From contig DCIT01000054.1 of assembly GCA_002317145.1 (NCBI GenBank), positions 17,322 to 81,321 of the forward strand: 64,000 bases of DNA. The letters are read 5' to 3'. Both the position numbers and the translations under genes were made by a program. This DNA comes from Bacillales bacterium UBA1719. Lineage in GTDB: Bacteria > Bacillota_I > Bacilli_A > RFN20 > CAG-826. The notes under the pieces were generated by a model that had not been told where the DNA came from, searched no databases, and worked only from the letters and a program-made list of their open reading frames with translations. Below are positions 2,980 to 49,594 of this stretch, piece after piece (the stretch's first letter is position 1; each line of letters starts with the position of its first letter).

Positions 2980-3369
2980 ATGGCAAAAACGAATACAACT
3001 CGTAAAAAGAAAATTAAACGCTCCTTTACTAAAGGTGTTGCTCATATTCATTCAACATTTAATAACACAATTGTTACTATTACTGATGATCAAGGCAATG
3101 CTATTAGTTGGGCTAGCGCAGGAACCCTTGGATTTAAAGGCGCAAAGAAATCAACTCCATTTGCTGCTCAAGTAGCAAGTGAAGCTGCAGCTAAAGCGGC
3201 ATTTAACCAAGGATTACGTCAATTAGACGTCAATGTAAAGGGTCCAGGTCCAGGAAGAGAATCTGCTATCCGCGCACTTGTTGCGGCAGGTATGCAATTA
3301 CTCTCAATTGTTGACACAACCCCAGTTCCACACAATGGTTGTCGTCCAGAAAAAAGACCACGTGGATAA
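2980..3369 (+). CDS. rpsK: 30S ribosomal protein S11
   Basis: [18 protein letters not shown]...[12 protein letters not shown] is typical of S11. Confidence 0.97.
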
Positions 3370-4906: not shown

Positions 4907-6763
4907 ATGCCTACTAATAAATTAGTTTACGACTTAAATGATCGTCCAAAGTTCTCGAAACTTATTCTTTATTCTTTCCAAATGTTGCTTGCTATTTTAG
5001 CAGCGACAATTGCAGTTCCAACTATCATTGGATTACCTGCGCAAATCCCTGCGGCAATTTTAGGCGCAGGTGTTGGAACGCTTATTTATGTGGCGTTCAC
5101 TAAAGGCAAATCTCCAGTTATGTTGTCTAGTTCATTTGCGTTCCTATCCGCGTTCCCAACTGCAATTGCTTTTGGATATATGGGTATTGTACTTGGTGGT
5201 TTATTTGCTGGGACAATTTATGTAATAATTGCTTTAGTAATTAAATTTGTTGGTACGAAATGGTTAGATAAATTATTACCTCCAGTTATTATTGGTCCAG
5301 TAGTTGCTCTTATTGGTCTATCTTTAGCGGGTTCAGCGATGGGAGATATTACTAAAGCTAGTGGATCAGGTCAAACATATAACTTATTAGGATTACTTTG
5401 TGGTTTAGTAGCATTCTTTGTTATTGTTGTTATTTCTAATCAACAAAAGAAACCAGGATTAAAGTTAATTCCTTTTGTTATTGGTATTGCTGCAGGTTAT
5501 GCTTTAGCGAGTATCTTTACAGCTTTTGGTAATGCTTATAATGTTGATTATTTAAAGATTATTAATTGGGATCCGTTAGTGAGTAATTTCTCTCCAGTTA
5601 GATTACAATCATTTTTAGATTATCCTCGTATATCATTAGTTGAAGCGATTAACGAACTTAGAACTGGTCAGATTAGTGATTCAATTGTTTTAGCGCATGC
5701 AGTAAACTTTAAAACTGAATTAGCGAAAGTTGGTGTTATTGATTTAACTGCTGCGAATATTACTGCGATTAGAGCAGGATTAGCTGAAATAGGTGCTATG
5801 CCTCAAGCGCTTTCTGGTGTTGGTGTTGCACAAGTTGCAATAGCATTCTGTCCAATAGCATTTGTTACTTTAGCGGAGCATATTGCTGATCATAAGAATA
5901 TTTCTAGAATCGTTAATAAAGACTTATTAAAAGAACCAGGATTACATAGAACTTTATTAGGTGATGGTGTTGGTTCGATTGGTGGTACGGCATTAGGTAT
6001 TTGTCCTAATACTACTTATGGAGAATCAGTGGCGTGTGTTGCATTAACACGTAATGCTTCAGTTATTACCACAATTTCTACAGCGATTATGTGTATTATC
6101 TTAGCGTTCTTAACTCCATTTAATAAATTATTAGCGACTATTCCAAGTTGTGTTATGGGTGGTGTATGTTTAACACTTTATGGATTTATAGCTGTTTCAG
6201 GATTAAGAATGTTTAAAGATATTGATTTAGATAATAACGTGAATTTAATGACAGTATCTTCGATATTAATTGCTGGTATTGGTGGATTAATTATTGCTAT
6301 TCCATATGGAAAAGATAATAAAGGAGTGTTGTTAACAATTGATATTACCGCGATTGCAACAGCGTTAATTTTAGGTATAGCGACATATCAAATTGCTAGT
6401 AAGATTTCTAAAAGAGGCAAGAGCACTGTTAAAGAAATTAACTATGAAGTTAAAGAAGAAGACTTATTCCGTCATTATTTAAAAACTTTAAATGTTGATA
6501 TATTAGCCAAAGCATTATTAACATTCGGATTCATCCATGAAAACGTTGATTTCACTGCTGGACAATTATCTAACTACATGAGAAGCGATAGAATATTAAA
6601 TACATGCACAGAAAAAGAATTAAAAGAATTAATTAAGTTACTTGAGTTTAGTAAGAATCCTTCTAAATTAAAGAAAGCTCAATGCATTGATTTAATTAAA
6701 AAGAGTGTTGCTAAAATTGAATCTACCGTAAGTAAACAAATTACTGCTCAAGAAATTCGTTAA
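4907..6763 (+). CDS. Nucleobase:cation symporter (NCS2, uracil/xanthine permease family) with an internal insertion and a long C-terminal soluble extension
   Basis: Multi-TM protein with NCS2-like blocks (...LAEHIADH..., ...NTTYGESVA...). At 618 aa it is longer than the roughly 430 aa typical of this family. Confidence 0.8.
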   Translation: MPTNKLVYDLNDRPKFSKLILYSFQMLLAILAATIAVPTIIGLPAQIPAAILGAGVGTLIYVAFTKGKSPVMLSSSFAFLSAFPTAIAFGYMGIVLGGLFAGTIYVIIALVIKFVGTKWLDKLLPPVIIGPVVALIGLSLAGSAMGDITKASGSGQTYNLLGLLCGLVAFFVIVVISNQQKKPGLKLIPFVIGIAAGYALASIFTAFGNAYNVDYLKIINWDPLVSNFSPVRLQSFLDYPRISLVEAINELRTGQISDSIVLAHAVNFKTELAKVGVIDLTAANITAIRAGLAEIGAMPQALSGVGVAQVAIAFCPIAFVTLAEHIADHKNISRIVNKDLLKEPGLHRTLLGDGVGSIGGTALGICPNTTYGESVACVALTRNASVITTISTAIMCIILAFLTPFNKLLATIPSCVMGGVCLTLYGFIAVSGLRMFKDIDLDNNVNLMTVSSILIAGIGGLIIAIPYGKDNKGVLLTIDITAIATALILGIATYQIASKISKRGKSTVKEINYEVKEEDLFRHYLKTLNVDILAKALLTFGFIHENVDFTAGQLSNYMRSDRILNTCTEKELKELIKLLEFSKNPSKLKKAQCIDLIKKSVAKIESTVSKQITAQEIR

Positions 6764-43623: not shown

Positions 43624-45306
43624 ATGAAGAAAAATGTCGCAAAGAAAGCAACTAAGAAAACAGTAGTGGTTGAGAAAAAGAAAACTCCTACAACTGCCTA
43701 TGAGAAAGCAGTCGCTCTTTATGAAGGTAAAGAATATCAAGATGCTTTAAAACAATTAGACGCTCTTAGAAAAGAAGGTGCTTGGAAAATCTTAAGAATT
43801 AAAGATGAAAACATTAACGTTAAGATTAATAAGCAATTAAATAAACAAGCTAAGAAAAAACTTCTTGATATGAACAATGAGGAAATGGCTGCTGCGAAAG
43901 GTGTTGCTAATCAAAACAAAGAACGCATTAATGATATTGTAAATGTCATTGCTGCTAAATCTAAAGCTGAGTTCACTCCAATTTATGAACAAGCATGTGA
44001 AGAAAAGAAGAACGCAATAGAAGCTGCAAAGAAAGAATATGCTGAAGCAGTTGCTAAAGCAAAAGAAGAACATCATAAAGATTTAGAAAAGATTAAATCT
44101 TCATCTTCTAAAGATAAAAAGATCGAATTAAAAGCTGCGAAAATTTCTTATGCTTCAAAAATTAATGCTGCTAACAATGCAAAGTTTGCCGCTATTGATA
44201 AAGCAAAAGAAGAAAAATATTTAACTTATCAAACAAGTTATGAATATTTATCTAAATTACGTTTAAATAAACACACTCAAGGTGAGTCAACTAAGTACGG
44301 CATTGAAACTTATGTTCGCAACTTCAACTTAGTGAACTGGTTAACAAAGAATGCTTTATTATTAATAGTCTTAACATTCTTCTTAATCTTACTCATTGTA
44401 TCTAAAGGTAAGATTTTAGCTCCAGATTTTGTCTTAACATCATTATCACAAATCGCTCCTAAGATATTCTTCGCCCTAGGTGTTGCGGGATTAATCTTAC
44501 TTGGCGGTACCGACTTATCGATTGGTCGATTAACGGCAGTTGGCGCATCCTTTACCTTAATGATATTAACAATGGGTAAAGCTAATGACTTATCATGGTT
44601 CAAGTTCATGATAAATGTTCCATTAGGTGGTAAAGTAGTGGTTGCTATCTTATTCTCAGTATTTATATGTACACTCTTTACATTTATTTCTGGTTTCTTT
44701 ACTGCGAAATTTAAAATGCATCCATTCATTTCTACATTAGCAGTTCAATTAATTGTCTATGGTTTCTTCCAAGCGTTCTTTAGCTCAGTTGCAGCTTTTA
44801 CAATTGATCCAGATGTTCAACTAAAACTTGGTGGTTCTAATGGATGGTTATTAGTAATATATGCTATCGTTGCAATTGCAGTTGTTTGGTTTATTTGGAA
44901 CAAAACTAAATTTGGTAAACACTTATATGCTGTTGGTGGTAACCCAGAAGCCGCAGCTGTCTCTGGTATTAACCCAATGAAGATTACAATCTTAGCCTTC
45001 GTTATGGCTGGTGTTCTTTATGGATTAGGTGGATTCGTCCAAGCTATCCAAGGTGGATCTGCAAACTTTAACTCTTATAATGGAACTGAAACCGATGCTA
45101 TCGCAGCATGCGTTATCGGTGGTGTATCCTTCTCTGGTGGCGTTGGTACCATCGGTGGTGTTGTTGGTGGAACAATCATCCTAGGATTCTTAACATCATG
45201 CTTCTCATATCTTGAACTTGATGCGAATATTCAATTCGTTATTAAAGGTATTATCATCTTAACCGCTGTTACTCTTGACTGTATTAAATACATTCGTAAG
45301 AAGTAA
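43624..45306 (+). CDS. Sugar ABC transporter permease (RbsC/MglC type) with a roughly 235-aa Lys/Ala-rich N-terminal extension
   Basis: The C-terminal 320 aa form a typical BPD_transp_2 permease (YAVGGNPEAAAVSGI). The N-terminus is a K/A/E-rich, predicted helical region. Confidence 0.85.
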   Translation: MKKNVAKKATKKTVVVEKKKTPTTAYEKAVALYEGKEYQDALKQLDALRKEGAWKILRIKDENINVKINKQLNKQAKKKLLDMNNEEMAAAKGVANQNKERINDIVNVIAAKSKAEFTPIYEQACEEKKNAIEAAKKEYAEAVAKAKEEHHKDLEKIKSSSSKDKKIELKAAKISYASKINAANNAKFAAIDKAKEEKYLTYQTSYEYLSKLRLNKHTQGESTKYGIETYVRNFNLVNWLTKNALLLIVLTFFLILLIVSKGKILAPDFVLTSLSQIAPKIFFALGVAGLILLGGTDLSIGRLTAVGASFTLMILTMGKANDLSWFKFMINVPLGGKVVVAILFSVFICTLFTFISGFFTAKFKMHPFISTLAVQLIVYGFFQAFFSSVAAFTIDPDVQLKLGGSNGWLLVIYAIVAIAVVWFIWNKTKFGKHLYAVGGNPEAAAVSGINPMKITILAFVMAGVLYGLGGFVQAIQGGSANFNSYNGTETDAIAACVIGGVSFSGGVGTIGGVVGGTIILGFLTSCFSYLELDANIQFVIKGIIILTAVTLDCIKYIRKK

Positions 45307-45324
45307 TTATTTAACTAAATTATT

Positions 45325-45352
45325 AAAGGGATGTCTCGTGCATCCCTTTTTA
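45325..45352 (+). terminator. Rho-independent terminator after the sugar ABC operon
   Basis: AAAGGGATG(45325-33)/CATCCCTTT(45341-49), then a T-run. Confidence 0.8.
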
Positions 45353-45372
45353 ATTTCATATATAATATTTAC

Positions 45373-45891
45373 ATGAAAAAATTGAAGTTATTATCCTTAT
45401 TATTATTTGCTCCATTCTTTGGTTTAACTGCCTGTAATAAAGAAGAACCTTATAAAAATATTGTTAAAGATAGTACTCAATTAATTGCTAAAAATAGTGT
45501 TACTGAATATAAGTCTGGTACTACTTTAGATGTTACTAAAATTGAAGTAACTTTTAATGGTAACAAAGTTGATTATGAAGGTAGCGAAGATAACCCTGTA
45601 GTAGGAAAATTCTTTATTACTAAATCTAATATATCTCCAACTAGAAATAGAGTAAAACAAGGAAGTCTCCAACTTAAAATATCTGAGGAAAAGAAAGAGC
45701 AAATATTTTATGTAGCATTATTAACTGGTACTGGCGTTTATGATCCTGTTCATGTATCTAGCGAATTAAAAGTTTTAATTACTAATGATAAGGGTATGAA
45801 AACCTGGGTATATTGGGTTGTTGGTCCGACAGTTATTGTTGGAGCATCTTTACTAGTATTTTTAACTAAAAAATATAAAGATAAACATTAA
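45373..45891 (+). CDS. Putative lipoprotein with C-terminal TM anchor, function unknown
   Basis: MKKLKLLSLLLFAPFFGLTAC lipobox. TATAAT (45361-66) lies 6 nt before the ATG. The ORF-track start at 45331 lies inside the terminator. Confidence 0.6.
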   Translation: MKKLKLLSLLLFAPFFGLTACNKEEPYKNIVKDSTQLIAKNSVTEYKSGTTLDVTKIEVTFNGNKVDYEGSEDNPVVGKFFITKSNISPTRNRVKQGSLQLKISEEKKEQIFYVALLTGTGVYDPVHVSSELKVLITNDKGMKTWVYWVVGPTVIVGASLLVFLTKKYKDKH

Positions 45892-46004
45892 AAATATAAT
45901 TAAATCATCGTGTGCACCATAGATAGTTTTTCTTGTGTTAAAATAAAATAGTTCGTTTCCTAAATATCGTATAAATTCTTGTTTGTTCGAACGTTATTTT
46001 TAAT

Positions 46005-46496
46005 ATGGAAATCGTTGAAATCAAAAAAGAATACATTGATGAATTAAGAAAAAGTTTTTCGCATGTAATGATTAATAAAGGTGAATTTAGCATACATTCA
46101 AGGAAGTATATCGGAATAATTCTAAGTATTAAAAAATATAATTATTACGCACCTTTTTCTTCTCCAAAATTTTACGATTATTATAATTGTGGAATTCCAA
46201 AAGAAAGTTCTAAGTATGTTATTAGAATGACAGAATTAGATGGTGGGTATAAAAAAATATTAGGCAAGATTGTTTTAAATTGCATGATTCCTGTTCCACA
46301 AAAATATGTTGTTAAATTTAACATTAATAAAATATACGATAAACAATATAGAGATTTACTTATATCTGAATATATATGGATTAACAAAAATAAAAGTCTT
46401 ATAAAACAATATGCAAAAATAGTATATAAATCTAATGATAAAATCGTTTTGCCGTTTAGAAAAATTGAAAAATATATTAATAAAAAATACTTATAG
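46005..46496 (+). CDS. ToxN/AbiQ-family type III toxin-antitoxin toxin (endoribonuclease-like)
   Basis: By-eye match to ToxN/AbiQ blocks: KEYIDELRK; RKYIGIILSIKKYNYYAPFSSPK; VLNCMIPVP; YRDLLISEYIWINKNKSLI. Size of 163 aa is typical. Confidence 0.75.
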   Translation: MEIVEIKKEYIDELRKSFSHVMINKGEFSIHSRKYIGIILSIKKYNYYAPFSSPKFYDYYNCGIPKESSKYVIRMTELDGGYKKILGKIVLNCMIPVPQKYVVKFNINKIYDKQYRDLLISEYIWINKNKSLIKQYAKIVYKSNDKIVLPFRKIEKYINKKYL

Positions 46497-46539
46497 ATAT
46501 TTATTGCTAATTTATTTATATTATGAAATAATAACTATA

Positions 46540-46618
46540 CCGAAAGGTCAGTGATCCTCAGCTGTAAATGCGGGAAGCTTAATAAAGGTGTGCTCCGCCG
46601 AAATGGAGCTTTTCTTTT
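46540..46618 (+). ncRNA. Unclassified GC-richer element ending in an intrinsic terminator (candidate small RNA or toxN 3' UTR)
   Basis: CCGAAAGGTCAGTGATCCTCAGCTG...GGGAAGC..., then stem GCTCC(46592-96)/GGAGC(46605-09) followed by TTTTCTTTT. Confidence 0.25.
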
Positions 46619-46694
46619 GTAACAATTTATTGCATAAAAAATAACTATGTTATATATTATTAAGGCACGCTTTTAAGTAGTGCGTTATTTTTAT

Positions 46695-46771
46695 GGGCCT
46701 TTAGCTCAGCTGGTTAGAGCGTACCCCTGATAAGGGTAAGGTCGATAGTTCAAGTCTATTAAGGCCCACCA
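46695..46771 (+). tRNA. tRNA-Ile (anticodon GAU), CCA encoded
   Basis: Hand-folded cloverleaf with acceptor GGGCCTT/AAGGCCC, anticodon loop CTGATAA and T-loop TTCAAGT. Confidence 0.9.
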
Positions 46772-46797
46772 TTTAAAAATAATAGTCAACTGAACTT

Positions 46798-46873
46798 GGG
46801 CACATAGCTCAGTTGGGAGAGCGTTTCCTTCACACGGAAGAGGTCGTAGGTTCGATCCCTACTGCGCCCACCA
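46798..46873 (+). tRNA. tRNA-Val (anticodon CAC), CCA encoded
   Basis: Hand-folded cloverleaf with anticodon loop TTCACAC and T-arm GTAGG-TTCGATC-CCTAC. There is one A5:C68 mismatch in the acceptor stem. Confidence 0.85.
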
Positions 46874-46877
46874 TATT

Positions 46878-46953
46878 GCCGACTTAGCTCAATTGGTAGA
46901 GCAACTGATTTGTAATCAGTAGGTTGAAGGTTCGAGTCCCTTAGTCGGCACCA
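46878..46953 (+). tRNA. tRNA-Thr (anticodon UGU), CCA encoded
   Basis: Acceptor GCCGACT/AGTCGGC, anticodon stem ACTGA/TCAGT with loop TTTGTAA, T-loop TTCGAGT. Confidence 0.9.
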
Positions 46954-46970
46954 AAATTTATATTTTATTA

Positions 46971-46993
46971 AGAGCTAAAAATAGCTCTTTTTT
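46971..46993 (+). terminator. Rho-independent terminator after the tRNA cluster
   Basis: AGAGCTA(46971-77)-AAAA-TAGCTCT(46982-88), then a T-run. Confidence 0.8.
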
Positions 46994-47027
46994 ATTTGCA
47001 CAAAAATATAAATTTATATATAAATCA

Positions 47028-47057
47028 TTGATTTATTTATAAAAAATTAGATATAAT
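47028..47057 (+). promoter_or_regulatory. Promoter of the STAS-phosphatase operon; predicted leaderless mRNA
   Basis: -35 TTGATT (47028-33), 18-nt spacer, -10 TATAAT (47052-57). The ATG at 47064 is only 6 nt downstream, with no Shine-Dalgarno. Confidence 0.45.
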
Positions 47058-47063
47058 TTAAAC

Positions 47064-47363
47064 ATGGAAATTAATATTAAAGAAAAAACTGAGGGGTTTT
47101 TAGTCGAACTTTCCGGTAGATTAGATTCTAGCACTTCAGGTGCTTTAGAAACTAAATTAACAGGACTTGTTAATAAAAAGAAAAACGTCGTTTTAGATTT
47201 TAAACGTGTTGAATATGTATCAAGTGCTGCATTAAGAGCTTTGTTAACTATTCAAAAAAGCTTAAAAGCTTCTAATAATGCTCTTTCTGCTATTAATGCG
47301 AATGAAGTTGTTAAAGAAGTTTTTGATATTACAGGATTTTCTTCGATAATCGAAATTAAATAA
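47064..47363 (+). CDS. STAS-domain anti-sigma-factor antagonist (SpoIIAA/RsbV-like)
   Basis: 99 aa. ...VVLDFKRVEYVSSAALRALL... carries the conserved phosphorylatable Ser context. Confidence 0.88.
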   Translation: MEINIKEKTEGFLVELSGRLDSSTSGALETKLTGLVNKKKNVVLDFKRVEYVSSAALRALLTIQKSLKASNNALSAINANEVVKEVFDITGFSSIIEIK

Positions 47364-49594
47364 TGGCTATTCTAAGTTGGCAAAGTTATTTAACATTACT
47401 TGCTTGTTGCTTATCTCCAGCGATTATTGCAATAATATTGCATTATTTTTTAAAACGTTGGAAATGGTTTAATAGTCTTAATTATTGGATTAGACAAGTA
47501 TCTATTGGTCTAATCTTTTCTGGTTTAGCTTTATGTTCATTTTACTTTGGTGTTGAATATTCAACTATTGATCCAAGTGGATTATATAAAGATGTTGTAG
47601 GTAATTTTGGTAGCGCGAATGCTTCCCCATTAATTGCTGGATTAGTATTTGGTGGTCCATCAGGATTTATTGCTGGATTTGCTGCTGGCATATATCGTTT
47701 AGTTATTTATCCGTTTGGTAGTGGAGATTATTTAAGAGCGGCTGAATGTATAACTGTTTTAGCCTCTGGTGGATTAGCTTGGTTACTTAGAGCAACGTTG
47801 TTTGATAACAAGAAACCTAGATGGTTTTATGGATTGATTATTGGAATGCTTATTGAAACATTCCATATGTTATTAATATTTACTGTATCAATTGCCCAAG
47901 TAGATTCTGTATATGCTTATGGAATTATTAGAGTATGTGATATCCCTTGCTTTGTTACTGTAGGTCTTTCTGTTGCTCTAACGTTAATAGGAATATCATT
48001 ATTAGAAAAAGAAAAACTAATTAATAAAGTTAAAGGTGGCGATAAACGAATTGCGACAAAGATCCAAAGATGGATGGGATTAACTTTTGTTATCGCAATT
48101 ATTGTTACTTTCTCTTTTACATATTGGGGCAATTATCAAAAAACAGCATATGATATATCGCAGAATTTAAATAATGCAAATTATGATGCTAGAGTAAAAA
48201 TTCAATGCGATGAAAATGTTAAGGTATTTAGTGATTTTGTTGATTCATCAAAAGATTATTTAAAGGCTGCTAAAGATTCAGGAACATATCAAGTTTGTAA
48301 ATATCAAAGAATTGGAAAAATGGGATATACTGTCCTTCTTGATTATGATAGTAAAAGAATTGTTTCTATCCCATATGAAACACTTGAAAAACCAACAACA
48401 TATGATAATAAAATAGGTGTTGAATTCCCTGTTGATACAATTTATCCAGACTCAAAAACTGCTCATTTAAGAGAAGTTGAAGGAGTTATGTATTATTTAA
48501 AGTGGGAAGAAATTAAATTAAATAAAACTTATGATGGTAAATCACATGAACTTCATTATATCGCTGTTGCTCTTATCTCTCGTTCAGAGGCTAGATTAGA
48601 ATTAGGTATAGTAGTTAGATTAACATCCTACTTAGAATTATTAGTATTAATTGGAATATTCGCAGTTATTTATATATTCATTAAGAAAGTAGTTGTTAAG
48701 AATGTTTATAAGATAAATGATTCATTAGATAAGATTACTGGCGGCAATTTAAATACTAAAGTTAATGTTAGATCTAATAAAGAGTTCTCAGATTTATCTG
48801 ATGATATTAACCAGACTGTTGATTCTTTAAAACACTTTATTGATGAAGCAAATAAACGTATTGATGATGAATTAAAATACGCAAAAGAAATACAACAAAG
48901 CGCCTTACCATTAACATTCCCAACAACAAATTTATATGATTTACATGCTTGCATGCATACTGCTAAACAAGTAGGTGGAGACTTCTATGATTTCTTTAAT
49001 ATTGATAAGAAACATGTCTTTATCTCTATGGCCGATGTCTCTGGTAAAGGTATTCCAGCCGCAATGTTTATGATGAGAGCTAAAACATTAGTGAAATCAT
49101 TAATTGAAGCTAATGAATTAAAGCTAGATCATGTTATTAACATGGTTAATGAAGAACTTAATAAAGATAATAAGACAGGTATGTTTGTTACGGCATGGTT
49201 TGGTATTTTAAATACTGAAACAGGAGTAGTTGAATTTGTTAACTGTGGACACTGCAATCCATTAGTAGGTAAATCTCCAAGATTCAATTATCTCAAGATG
49301 GAAAAGAATTGTGTCTTAGGTGTTATTCCTAATATGAAATATAAGTTAGAGAAAGTTACTTTAAAATCCAATGATTCAATAATCTTATACACAGATGGAG
49401 TAACAGAAGCGACGAGTAAGAATAAGAAATTATTCGGAGAAGCTAAACTAAAAGAAGTAGTGAATAAAGCTAAAACTATTACTTCGAAAGAATTATTAGA
49501 TGTCATCCATAAAGAAGTCGATAAGTTCCAACACGGCGCTGAACAAGCAGATGATATAACTATGTTAATGATTAAATTTAAAGGTAAGAAATAA
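47363..49594 (+). CDS. Membrane sensor PP2C phosphatase (5TM-LytS-like N-domain, extracytoplasmic domain, HAMP, SpoIIE/RsbU-type PPM), paralog 1
   Basis: N-terminal TM bundle with LIAGLVFGGPSGFIAGFAAGIYR. PPM motifs GGDFYDF, ADVSGKGIPAAMFM, YTDGVTEA and DDITM. TAATG overlap with the STAS gene. Confidence 0.85.
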   Translation: MAILSWQSYLTLLACCLSPAIIAIILHYFLKRWKWFNSLNYWIRQVSIGLIFSGLALCSFYFGVEYSTIDPSGLYKDVVGNFGSANASPLIAGLVFGGPSGFIAGFAAGIYRLVIYPFGSGDYLRAAECITVLASGGLAWLLRATLFDNKKPRWFYGLIIGMLIETFHMLLIFTVSIAQVDSVYAYGIIRVCDIPCFVTVGLSVALTLIGISLLEKEKLINKVKGGDKRIATKIQRWMGLTFVIAIIVTFSFTYWGNYQKTAYDISQNLNNANYDARVKIQCDENVKVFSDFVDSSKDYLKAAKDSGTYQVCKYQRIGKMGYTVLLDYDSKRIVSIPYETLEKPTTYDNKIGVEFPVDTIYPDSKTAHLREVEGVMYYLKWEEIKLNKTYDGKSHELHYIAVALISRSEARLELGIVVRLTSYLELLVLIGIFAVIYIFIKKVVVKNVYKINDSLDKITGGNLNTKVNVRSNKEFSDLSDDINQTVDSLKHFIDEANKRIDDELKYAKEIQQSALPLTFPTTNLYDLHACMHTAKQVGGDFYDFFNIDKKHVFISMADVSGKGIPAAMFMMRAKTLVKSLIEANELKLDHVINMVNEELNKDNKTGMFVTAWFGILNTETGVVEFVNCGHCNPLVGKSPRFNYLKMEKNCVLGVIPNMKYKLEKVTLKSNDSIILYTDGVTEATSKNKKLFGEAKLKEVVNKAKTITSKELLDVIHKEVDKFQHGAEQADDITMLMIKFKGKK

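Follow-up and report, generated by a model that had tools for sequence, protein, structure and literature searches.

Type III toxin–antitoxin (TA) loci have been recognised, and mined from genomes, by the rule that tandem repeats are followed by a terminator and then by the toxin gene, and in the survey that defined the type III families an upstream terminator and upstream tandem repeats were prerequisites (PMC3401426). The repeats have been described as a key feature, crucial for antitoxin activity (PMC5086642). In pAW63 ToxIN of Bacillus thuringiensis the antitoxin consists of 2.9 tandem repeats placed upstream, with a terminator before toxN, and antiQ of the Lactococcus lactis anti-phage abortive-infection system AbiQ/antiQ consists of 2.8 upstream repeats of 35 nt, of which at least 1.8 are required for viability (PMC5086642). 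ToxI of Pectobacterium atrosepticum pECA1039 (ToxI_Pa) has 5.5 upstream repeats of 36 nt, and its precursor is cut into units by ToxN. A swapped order, with the toxin first and then toxI and a terminator behind a predicted separate promoter, is known from Lactobacillus jensenii SJ-7A-US, with a regulation that Blower et al. considered unclear (PMC3401426); this single untested case has tandem toxI repeats, because of which it was detected. Here we describe a ToxN/AbiQ-family gene, toxN, and a candidate antitoxin small RNA (sRNA) gene directly behind it, as found in a 64,000-nt stretch of DNA from Bacillales bacterium UBA1719 (contig DCIT01000054.1), which was analysed in full and is hereafter called the window.

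We consider it about 75% probable that this is a type III TA locus in which the antitoxin is a single-unit sRNA gene at about 46538-46618, having its own promoter, a pseudoknot unit and a terminator. As read from its sequence, the locus would not be a new kind of system, with toxin, RNA class and presumed logic all being ToxIN-like, and would depart from the textbook type III arrangement in two respects, namely the single-unit antitoxin and the toxin-first gene order. The closest solved toxin is that of pAW63 (PDB entry 4ATO), which shares the HSRxYxG and SPK-type active-site motifs, and its ToxI unit of 34 nt is similar in length to the about 37 nt in the window, where one downstream unit with its own promoter takes the place of the upstream array. 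The P. atrosepticum toxin (2XD0/2XDB) has the same fold with only about 22–25% identity, and the RNA units of both systems begin with (G/A)GUGA and are known or predicted H-type pseudoknots, in one unit here as opposed to 5.5 repeats. AbiQ (4GLK) is of the same toxin family, again with upstream repeats instead of one downstream unit. The swapped L. jensenii locus resembles the window in gene order but not in its tandem repeats, whereas the type found here has one unit per cassette in four distinct loci carrying 1–3 cassettes. Full-text searches of a literature library found no description of a naturally single-unit type III antitoxin. The features of the locus are as follows.

45892-46004, plus strand: intergenic and 5' region of toxN, 113 nt, with no antitoxin array, no terminator and no Shine-Dalgarno sequence
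46005-46496, plus strand: toxN, ToxN/AbiQ-family endoribonuclease toxin of 163 aa
46504-46532, plus strand: sRNA promoter from a promoter scan, with -35 TTGCTA (46504-46509), a 17-nt spacer, extended -10 TG (46524-46525) and -10 AATAAT (46527-46532)
46538-46618, plus strand: candidate antitoxin sRNA of ~80 nt, comprising a 5' hairpin, one ToxI-like unit, an A/U-rich linker and a terminator
46539-46548, plus strand: 5' hairpin, A-CC-GAAA-GG-U
46549-46586, plus strand: predicted ToxI-like pseudoknot unit of ~37 nt (CAGUGAUCCUCAGCUGUAAAUGCGGGAAGCUUAAUAAA), with stem S1 formed by 46549-46552 and 46561-46564, and stem S2 by 46556-46558 and 46572-46574
46592-46618, plus strand: intrinsic terminator from a terminator scan, GCUCC-GCCGAAAU-GGAGC followed by a U tract

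The initial annotation, made from the letters alone, had assigned the open reading frame (ORF) at 46005-46496 on the plus strand, with its 163 aa, to the ToxN/AbiQ family; all of the motifs it quoted were present, and the assignment was borne out by both profile and structure comparisons. The Pfam model ToxN_toxin (PF13958) matched residues 1–144 with 94.3 bits (cutoff 25; E=1.1e-26), the PADLOC model AbiQ matched with 1.1e-26, and among proteins of known structure the sequence matched 4ATO of B. thuringiensis (phmmer E=3e-12), 7D8O of E. coli, 2XD0 of P. atrosepticum and AbiQ 4GLK. An AlphaFold2 model, built on a shallow alignment of 4 sequences only, reached a predicted local distance difference test score (pLDDT) of 75.7 and a predicted template modelling score (pTM) of 0.72. 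This model had a ToxN/Kid-like fold, and in a Foldseek search of the PDB the same four structures were its top hits with template modelling (TM) scores of 0.66–0.72, that to 4ATO being 0.72, while the next match had an E-value of about 1, so that ToxN/AbiQ structures were the only significant matches. Sequence and predicted model together thus establish the family identity of the ORF. With regards to activity, the protein carries the motifs HSRKY (R33) and APFSSPK (S52, S53, K55). The active-site residues of P. atrosepticum ToxN (ToxN_Pa) are Tyr29, Lys33, Thr52, Ser53 and Lys55 (PMC5086642), and in the alignment R33, S52, S53 and K55 stood opposite K33, T52, S53 and K55, because of which the protein looks like an active ToxN; the Tyr29 position aligned with I30, in a gapped stretch of low confidence. 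The standard genetic code fitted the window, with long intact ORFs under table 11. A search for a second toxN paralogue within the 64 kb found none.

The spacer upstream of toxN, where the antitoxin of a canonical locus would be placed, was also much as initially described: the gap to the preceding lipoprotein-like gene is 113 nt and holds no conventional ToxI array. Tandem Repeats Finder (TRF), used at a minimum score of 30 over 45000-47500, gave no tandem array of any kind, the 34–38-nt type included, a repeat search of the spacer itself was negative, the terminator scan found no terminator between the lipoprotein-like gene and toxN, and no Shine-Dalgarno sequence precedes the toxN ATG, which holds also for the neighbouring lipoprotein and STAS genes. 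An antitoxin in the form of a degenerate repeat RNA within these 113 nt would have the canonical position and could appeal to two short words recurring about 60 nt apart, as pointed out in the initial annotation. The words are indeed there, but the best direct self-alignment of the spacer scored 15, compared with a mean of 16.3 (standard deviation 2.5) for dinucleotide shuffles, with 213 of 300 shuffles scoring at least 15, and their recurrence is therefore without significance. Neither nhmmer with a profile of the sRNA described below nor its covariance model had a match in 45892-46004, the latter giving at best 6.9 bits (E=1) with all filters off. Only the last, promoter-proximal ~60 nt of the spacer were conserved with the syntenic locus L011, probably reflecting a weak toxN promoter or leader, and the upstream spacers of three further relatives (L001, L026 and L027) were unrelated to it. 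Taken together, TRF, the repeat search, nhmmer, the unfiltered covariance scan and the chance-level self-similarity speak against the upstream spacer as the antitoxin, and we regard this explanation as extremely unlikely.

In L011 itself (666-947), a toxN relative of 65% identity follows a lipoprotein-like gene as in the window and is truncated at 93 aa, past which point the contig sequence diverges; the gene is probably a decayed paralogue or orthologue, and the contig ends before the region where an sRNA cassette could follow.

A compact sRNA cassette was instead found directly behind toxN. The predicted transcript of ~80 nt would start at about 46537-46540 and end at the terminator (46592-46609 plus the U tract). 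After the 5' hairpin comes a near-invariant core, C(A/G)GUGAYCCYCAGCYGYAARUGCRGGA, which is joined to the terminator by an A/U-rich (UUUAUAA-like) linker, and within the ~50 nt that precede the terminator there are 25 near-invariant bases together with covarying stems. The GC content of the sRNA region is 47% as compared with 22–29% in its flanks. The element occurs once in the window, with 0 occurrences expected by chance. Its nhmmer score was 83–87 bits, and the covariance model, R1, gave it 105 bits, the window copy having been among the training sequences. Rfam had no family matching the element at the gathering threshold, and with E-values up to 10 the 198-nt spacer gave only noise (ctRNA_p42d, FopS and similar). 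In an alignment of seven downstream cassettes the -35 TTG, the TG and the -10 core were invariant, whereas the 14 nt that separate the -35 hexamer from the TG varied freely. No terminator was found in the scan between the toxN stop codon and the cassette, and that of the cassette would thus be the only one available to the toxN mRNA. The terminator was also considered as a degenerate second 37-nt repeat (AGTGA at 46550, GGTGT at 46587), which was rejected, with 34 of 300 shuffles scoring as high. These findings overturn one implication of the heading of the initial annotation, that the toxin lacks a recognisable ToxI-like antitoxin. Of the three explanations that it had left standing, an antitoxin of a new or degenerate type and one encoded elsewhere (46540-46618) appear to be right jointly, whereas an unguarded or domesticated toxin does not agree with a conserved RNA bearing its own promoter.

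To follow the RNA through other genomes we built a profile hidden Markov model (HMM) and then R1 from its copies, and applied these to all fetched loci. The sRNA adjoined every close ToxN relative that could be fetched, with flanking genes varying among the loci. In P0002, the closest relative (60% identity), the upstream spacer is likewise short and free of repeats, and downstream of its gene, at 2746-2947 of L001, TRF detected a 111-nt unit in 1.8 copies having the same sequence as 46538-46616 of the window. This downstream layout was seen in four loci, with one copy in the window, two in L001, three in L026 and one in L027, encoding four distinct short ToxNs of 163–167 aa that are 45–60% identical; the cassettes were duplicated whole, with a period of 111–115 nt and up to three copies. 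In P0004 and P0005 (42–44% identity) the element instead occurs once, directly upstream of toxN. Such an upstream layout, with one copy each, was found in seven distinct loci (L003, identical to L012; L010; L013, identical to L022; L014; L015; L029–L031; L036–L038), in which the sRNA terminator ends at the ATG or within a few bases of it. The antitoxin-first order with a terminator in between and a single promoter, absent from the window, is present in L003, L010, L013–L015, L029 and L036. The upstream type has another promoter at the corresponding place (TTTACA or TTGACC, 17–18 nt, TAnATT) and a 5' hairpin, GCUUA-GAGA-UAAGC, of other sequence at the same position, and the RNA subtypes track the toxin subclades. 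Viral collections turned up neither the RNA pattern nor ToxN relatives.

The three cassettes of L026 (3028-3347) fall into two types by sequence. In copies a and b, which have CAGAGA...CUUCUG and GUAAGAGUGGG, the S1 stem is compensated, and copy c is similar to the window RNA, so that toxN of L026 may adjoin antitoxins of different specificity. At L029 2501-2560 and L032 1501-1545 the called toxN ORFs start too early and overrun the antitoxin RNA (197 and 192 aa compared with about 180); the tblastn match begins only past the RNA terminator, and automatic annotation here buries the RNA within a coding sequence.

We next considered how the single-unit RNA relates to conventional ToxI. More distant relatives have arrays upstream of toxN, with a 38-nt repeat in at least 2.5 copies in L016 (a Coprobacillus metagenome-assembled genome), two 38-nt units in L032 and a 36-nt repeat in 2.3 copies in L017 (Adlercreutzia). 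When the window-type unit was aligned with the L016 repeat (GGTGAYYCTCnnCCnTAAnnGnAGnAG...TTATAAC), z-values of 3.2–4.7 were obtained, and only 2–8 of 1000 shuffles reached the score. R1, although trained on single-unit RNAs only, matched the regions directly upstream of toxN in L016, L032 and L034, all outside the training set, with E-values of 1.6e-4 to 2e-3. Inspected by eye, L034, with an 'AbiQ'-named protein of 39% identity, displays a promoter, a 5' hairpin, one unit, a terminator, a Shine-Dalgarno sequence and toxN in this order, as do the upstream-type loci with their one unit. On these sequence comparisons the single-unit RNA is related to the ordinary ToxI arrays of more distant relatives. 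The Rfam ToxI model (RF02519), which is narrow and of the B. thuringiensis (Bt) type, had no match to the window element, and this silence is uninformative because the model misses even P. atrosepticum ToxI.

In L025, the Bacillus cereus plasmid pFORC47_2, the same Rfam model matches two units at 234-302; nearer to toxN, at 334-435, ~34-nt repeats in another phase make up a second set (AAATTTGGAGAG...CCGTAAGTTGGGACCGAT), so that there are two adjacent diverged ToxI-like arrays.

These data bear on the explanation that toxN is unguarded or domesticated and has no cognate antitoxin, the downstream element being simply the toxN terminator or a leader of tRNA genes. There is indeed no array upstream, the toxN mRNA would make use of the terminator at the end of the element, and tRNA genes follow the element in the window, L001 and L026. 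For a terminator, however, the last ~27 nt would suffice, whereas conservation is found in the ~50 nt that precede them; a conserved promoter accompanies each copy, and cassettes have been duplicated as a whole. Moreover, the same RNA lies upstream of toxN in the seven loci that have no tRNA nearby, no tRNA follows it in L027, and it is related to real ToxI arrays. We thus find an unguarded toxin quite improbable.

The upstream layout, in turn, brings up the possibility that the RNA acts in cis on toxN, as a riboswitch-like leader or attenuator, instead of being an antitoxin that binds the toxin. In that layout the terminator ends at or near the start codon, with GGAGC serving both as its 3' arm and as the toxN Shine-Dalgarno sequence (GGAGCUUUUUUUAUG; L003 4985-5003, L010 347-365 and L013–L015 at about 2985-3003), lying 8 nt before the ATG in L010 and L013. 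Read-through transcripts would therefore begin with a sequestered ribosome-binding site and masked initiation, and from terminator position and overlap together it follows that the element must also throttle transcription and translation of toxN in these loci. In the window, L001, L026 and L027, however, the RNA cannot be a 5' leader because it is located past the toxN stop codon, behind its own promoter. The two roles are in any case not exclusive, since in canonical ToxIN the antitoxin with its terminator likewise acts as an attenuator (PMC5086642). A leader function in place of an antitoxin function is thus unlikely, and the single-unit antitoxin remains the reading that we prefer.

For the proposed fold of that antitoxin, an H-type pseudoknot with S1 pairing CAGU with GCUG and S2 pairing CCU with GGG, followed by the terminator, pair counts were made on 15 copies of the RNA. 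A standard pair was present in 87% of the scored pair-sequence cells, with the S1 and S2 stems being 81–96% paired, and pairing dropped to 34–46% in control alignments where the partners were slid by 1–3 columns. Six pairs had changed on both sides, and none of 500 shuffles reached the covariation score. Two of these pairs are in S1 (A-U to G-C between two clades, and U-G to A-U in copies a and b of L026), one is in S2 (C-G to U-A in L027), and in the terminator, where all cells were paired, two pairs covary, as in the change from GCUCC/GGAGC to GCCUC/GAGGC in L013. The counts support the pseudoknot fold without proving it, because the sequences are few and related.

Several observations weigh against the single-unit antitoxin. 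The covariation amounts to few independent events among related sequences, and the RNA folds no more stably than its shuffles (z from -0.85 to +0.58), which would be expected also for protein-bound pseudoknots. Pairwise alignment of the unit to ToxI_Pa, the repeat sequence of which was checked against pECA1039, or to Bacillus ToxI, including the L025 repeat, is not significant on its own, the visible resemblance to ToxI_Pa being no more than suggestive (z of 1.5–2.0). The four downstream-type loci share sources, namely JGI 3300001598 (an Asian elephant faeces metagenome; PMC4160196) and the run SRR1221442, and may represent a single lineage. One copy of the RNA, in L021, has no toxN within the 12.9 kb fetched (about 6 kb on either side), so the linkage of RNA and toxN is not absolute. 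Finally, ToxI_Pa has been reported to require 2.5 repeats, and antiQ at least 1.8, in the native context (PMC5086642). A single TenpI repeat was reportedly not antitoxic. In view of these minima and of the inactive TenpI repeat it is not a given that a lone natural unit would work.

The L021 copy also shows that loss of toxN or stand-alone units do occur, and thereby lends some weight to the view that the downstream RNA is the relic of a canonical antitoxin-first locus that lost its own toxN, once located further downstream, by deletion, the toxN now beside it being there by accident or protected only incidentally in trans; in addition, the tRNA genes that follow the cassette are frequent sites of recombination and insertion. 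Yet all four distinct paralogous or orthologous loci, with toxins 45–60% identical, have toxN first and then the RNA, none of them has any toxN remnant after it, and the promoter of the downstream cassettes is of a dedicated type not present in the upstream-type loci. A relic is accordingly a rather remote prospect, and we return to the cassette as the probable cognate antitoxin of toxN.

If this is correct, we infer that the locus is transcribed and that its RNA is bound, processed and neutralising, with phage defence as a possible outcome, along the following lines. The sRNA would be made in excess from its strong, near-consensus extended -10 promoter, while toxN has only a weak promoter-like site of its own and no Shine-Dalgarno sequence. 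The toxN mRNA would probably extend into the cassette and so have one unit within its 3' untranslated region, because no terminator separates the stop codon from the cassette. ToxN would bind the pseudoknot unit with its active site occluded and be inactive, as in ToxIN complexes, possibly after trimming that unit in the A-rich 5' hairpin loop and in the A/U-rich 3' linker; with one unit per transcript, assembly would need no cutting of a multimeric precursor. Should sRNA synthesis stop, for example upon a phage-induced transcription shut-off, the labile RNA would decay and free ToxN could cleave cellular and phage RNA. Within the window lineage the terminator-attenuation design would have been replaced by an autonomous sRNA promoter, and dosage raised by duplication of promoter–RNA–terminator cassettes (1, 2 or 3) instead of multiplication of 36-nt repeats.

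More broadly, we would give somewhat better than even odds to the proposition that type III TA may do without tandem repeats and without antitoxin-first order, such that a whole ToxN subfamily uses a single, separately terminated pseudoknot sRNA, and that one lineage moved this sRNA behind the toxin as an autonomous cassette with dosage tuned by duplication. About 55 protein clusters (90% identity) were found at E<1e-50, the ToxN family as a whole numbering ~1,380 representatives, and 11 distinct loci were inspected here. The window locus and its relatives would then point to a natural class for which neither part of the rule on repeats and order holds, with loci that are invisible to repeat-based pipelines and would be annotated as lone toxins; many ToxN/AbiQ genes now seen as orphans would have overlooked single-unit antitoxins, and R1 could be put to use in re-annotating the surroundings of ToxN/AbiQ genes in gut metagenomes. 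Assembly would then do without the processing of a multimeric precursor. The locus would also offer a clean natural test of two questions from the ToxIN literature, namely whether precursor processing is needed for complex formation, and how the antitoxin-to-toxin ratio is set without the terminator-attenuation design. Free-standing units, as in L021 and perhaps the marine phage-like element described below, could in that case be anti-toxin decoys.

The orphan copy in L021 (5910-5998, within the region 5862-5998) is a full-length sRNA of 81 bits, located between hsp20 and flavoprotein genes on a 437-kb contig. About 35 nt before its promoter lies a second, different ToxI-like unit (GTGATTTGCTACCTAATGCAGG), with an exact 14-mer in common with P. 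atrosepticum ToxI. These units could be orphan antitoxins, which were left behind when toxN was lost or which serve as an anti-addiction or decoy locus. They may be compared with the pseudo-ToxI of phage PhiTE, a short ToxI-like locus of 1.5 repeats outside any canonical operon (PMC3475682); in its wild-type form that phage-borne locus does not encode a complete functional unit and only works once expanded, whereas the window-type unit is complete with flanks, promoter and terminator.

Four marine metagenome contigs with short phage-like ORFs (L018 213-246, L019 4099-4126, L020 5440-5473 and L023 2320-2347) have in common a non-coding region of ~180 nt, the invariant core of which, CCCAGTGATCCCCAGCTGTAAGTGCGGGCG, matches the ToxI-like unit including both proposed stems. 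No toxN was found on any of these contigs, and L020, the one scanned, had no Rfam match; R1 matched it with E=0.006. The element may be a phage ToxI mimic or a chance match, the latter because it was found by a pattern scan.

As for the genomic setting, toxN has a GC content of 22% compared with 30% for the window and is flanked by an ABC transporter operon on one side and by tRNA-Ile, tRNA-Val and tRNA-Thr ~200 nt after it on the other, in agreement with the AT-rich accessory position initially proposed. The host is uncultured, and the window carries no rRNA gene. The gene 5' of toxN is lipoprotein-like, with the lipobox LTAC and a real start that is probably at 45373 (MKKLKLLSLLLFAPFFGLTAC). 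Directly after the tRNA cluster, at 47064-49594, lie a gene for a STAS-domain, anti-sigma-antagonist-like protein of 99 aa (Pfam STAS, 1.4e-15) and one for a 743-aa membrane protein, which judging from its sequence alone may be a SpoIIE/PP2C-type phosphatase. Together these two would make a partner-switching module, unrelated to the toxN finding.

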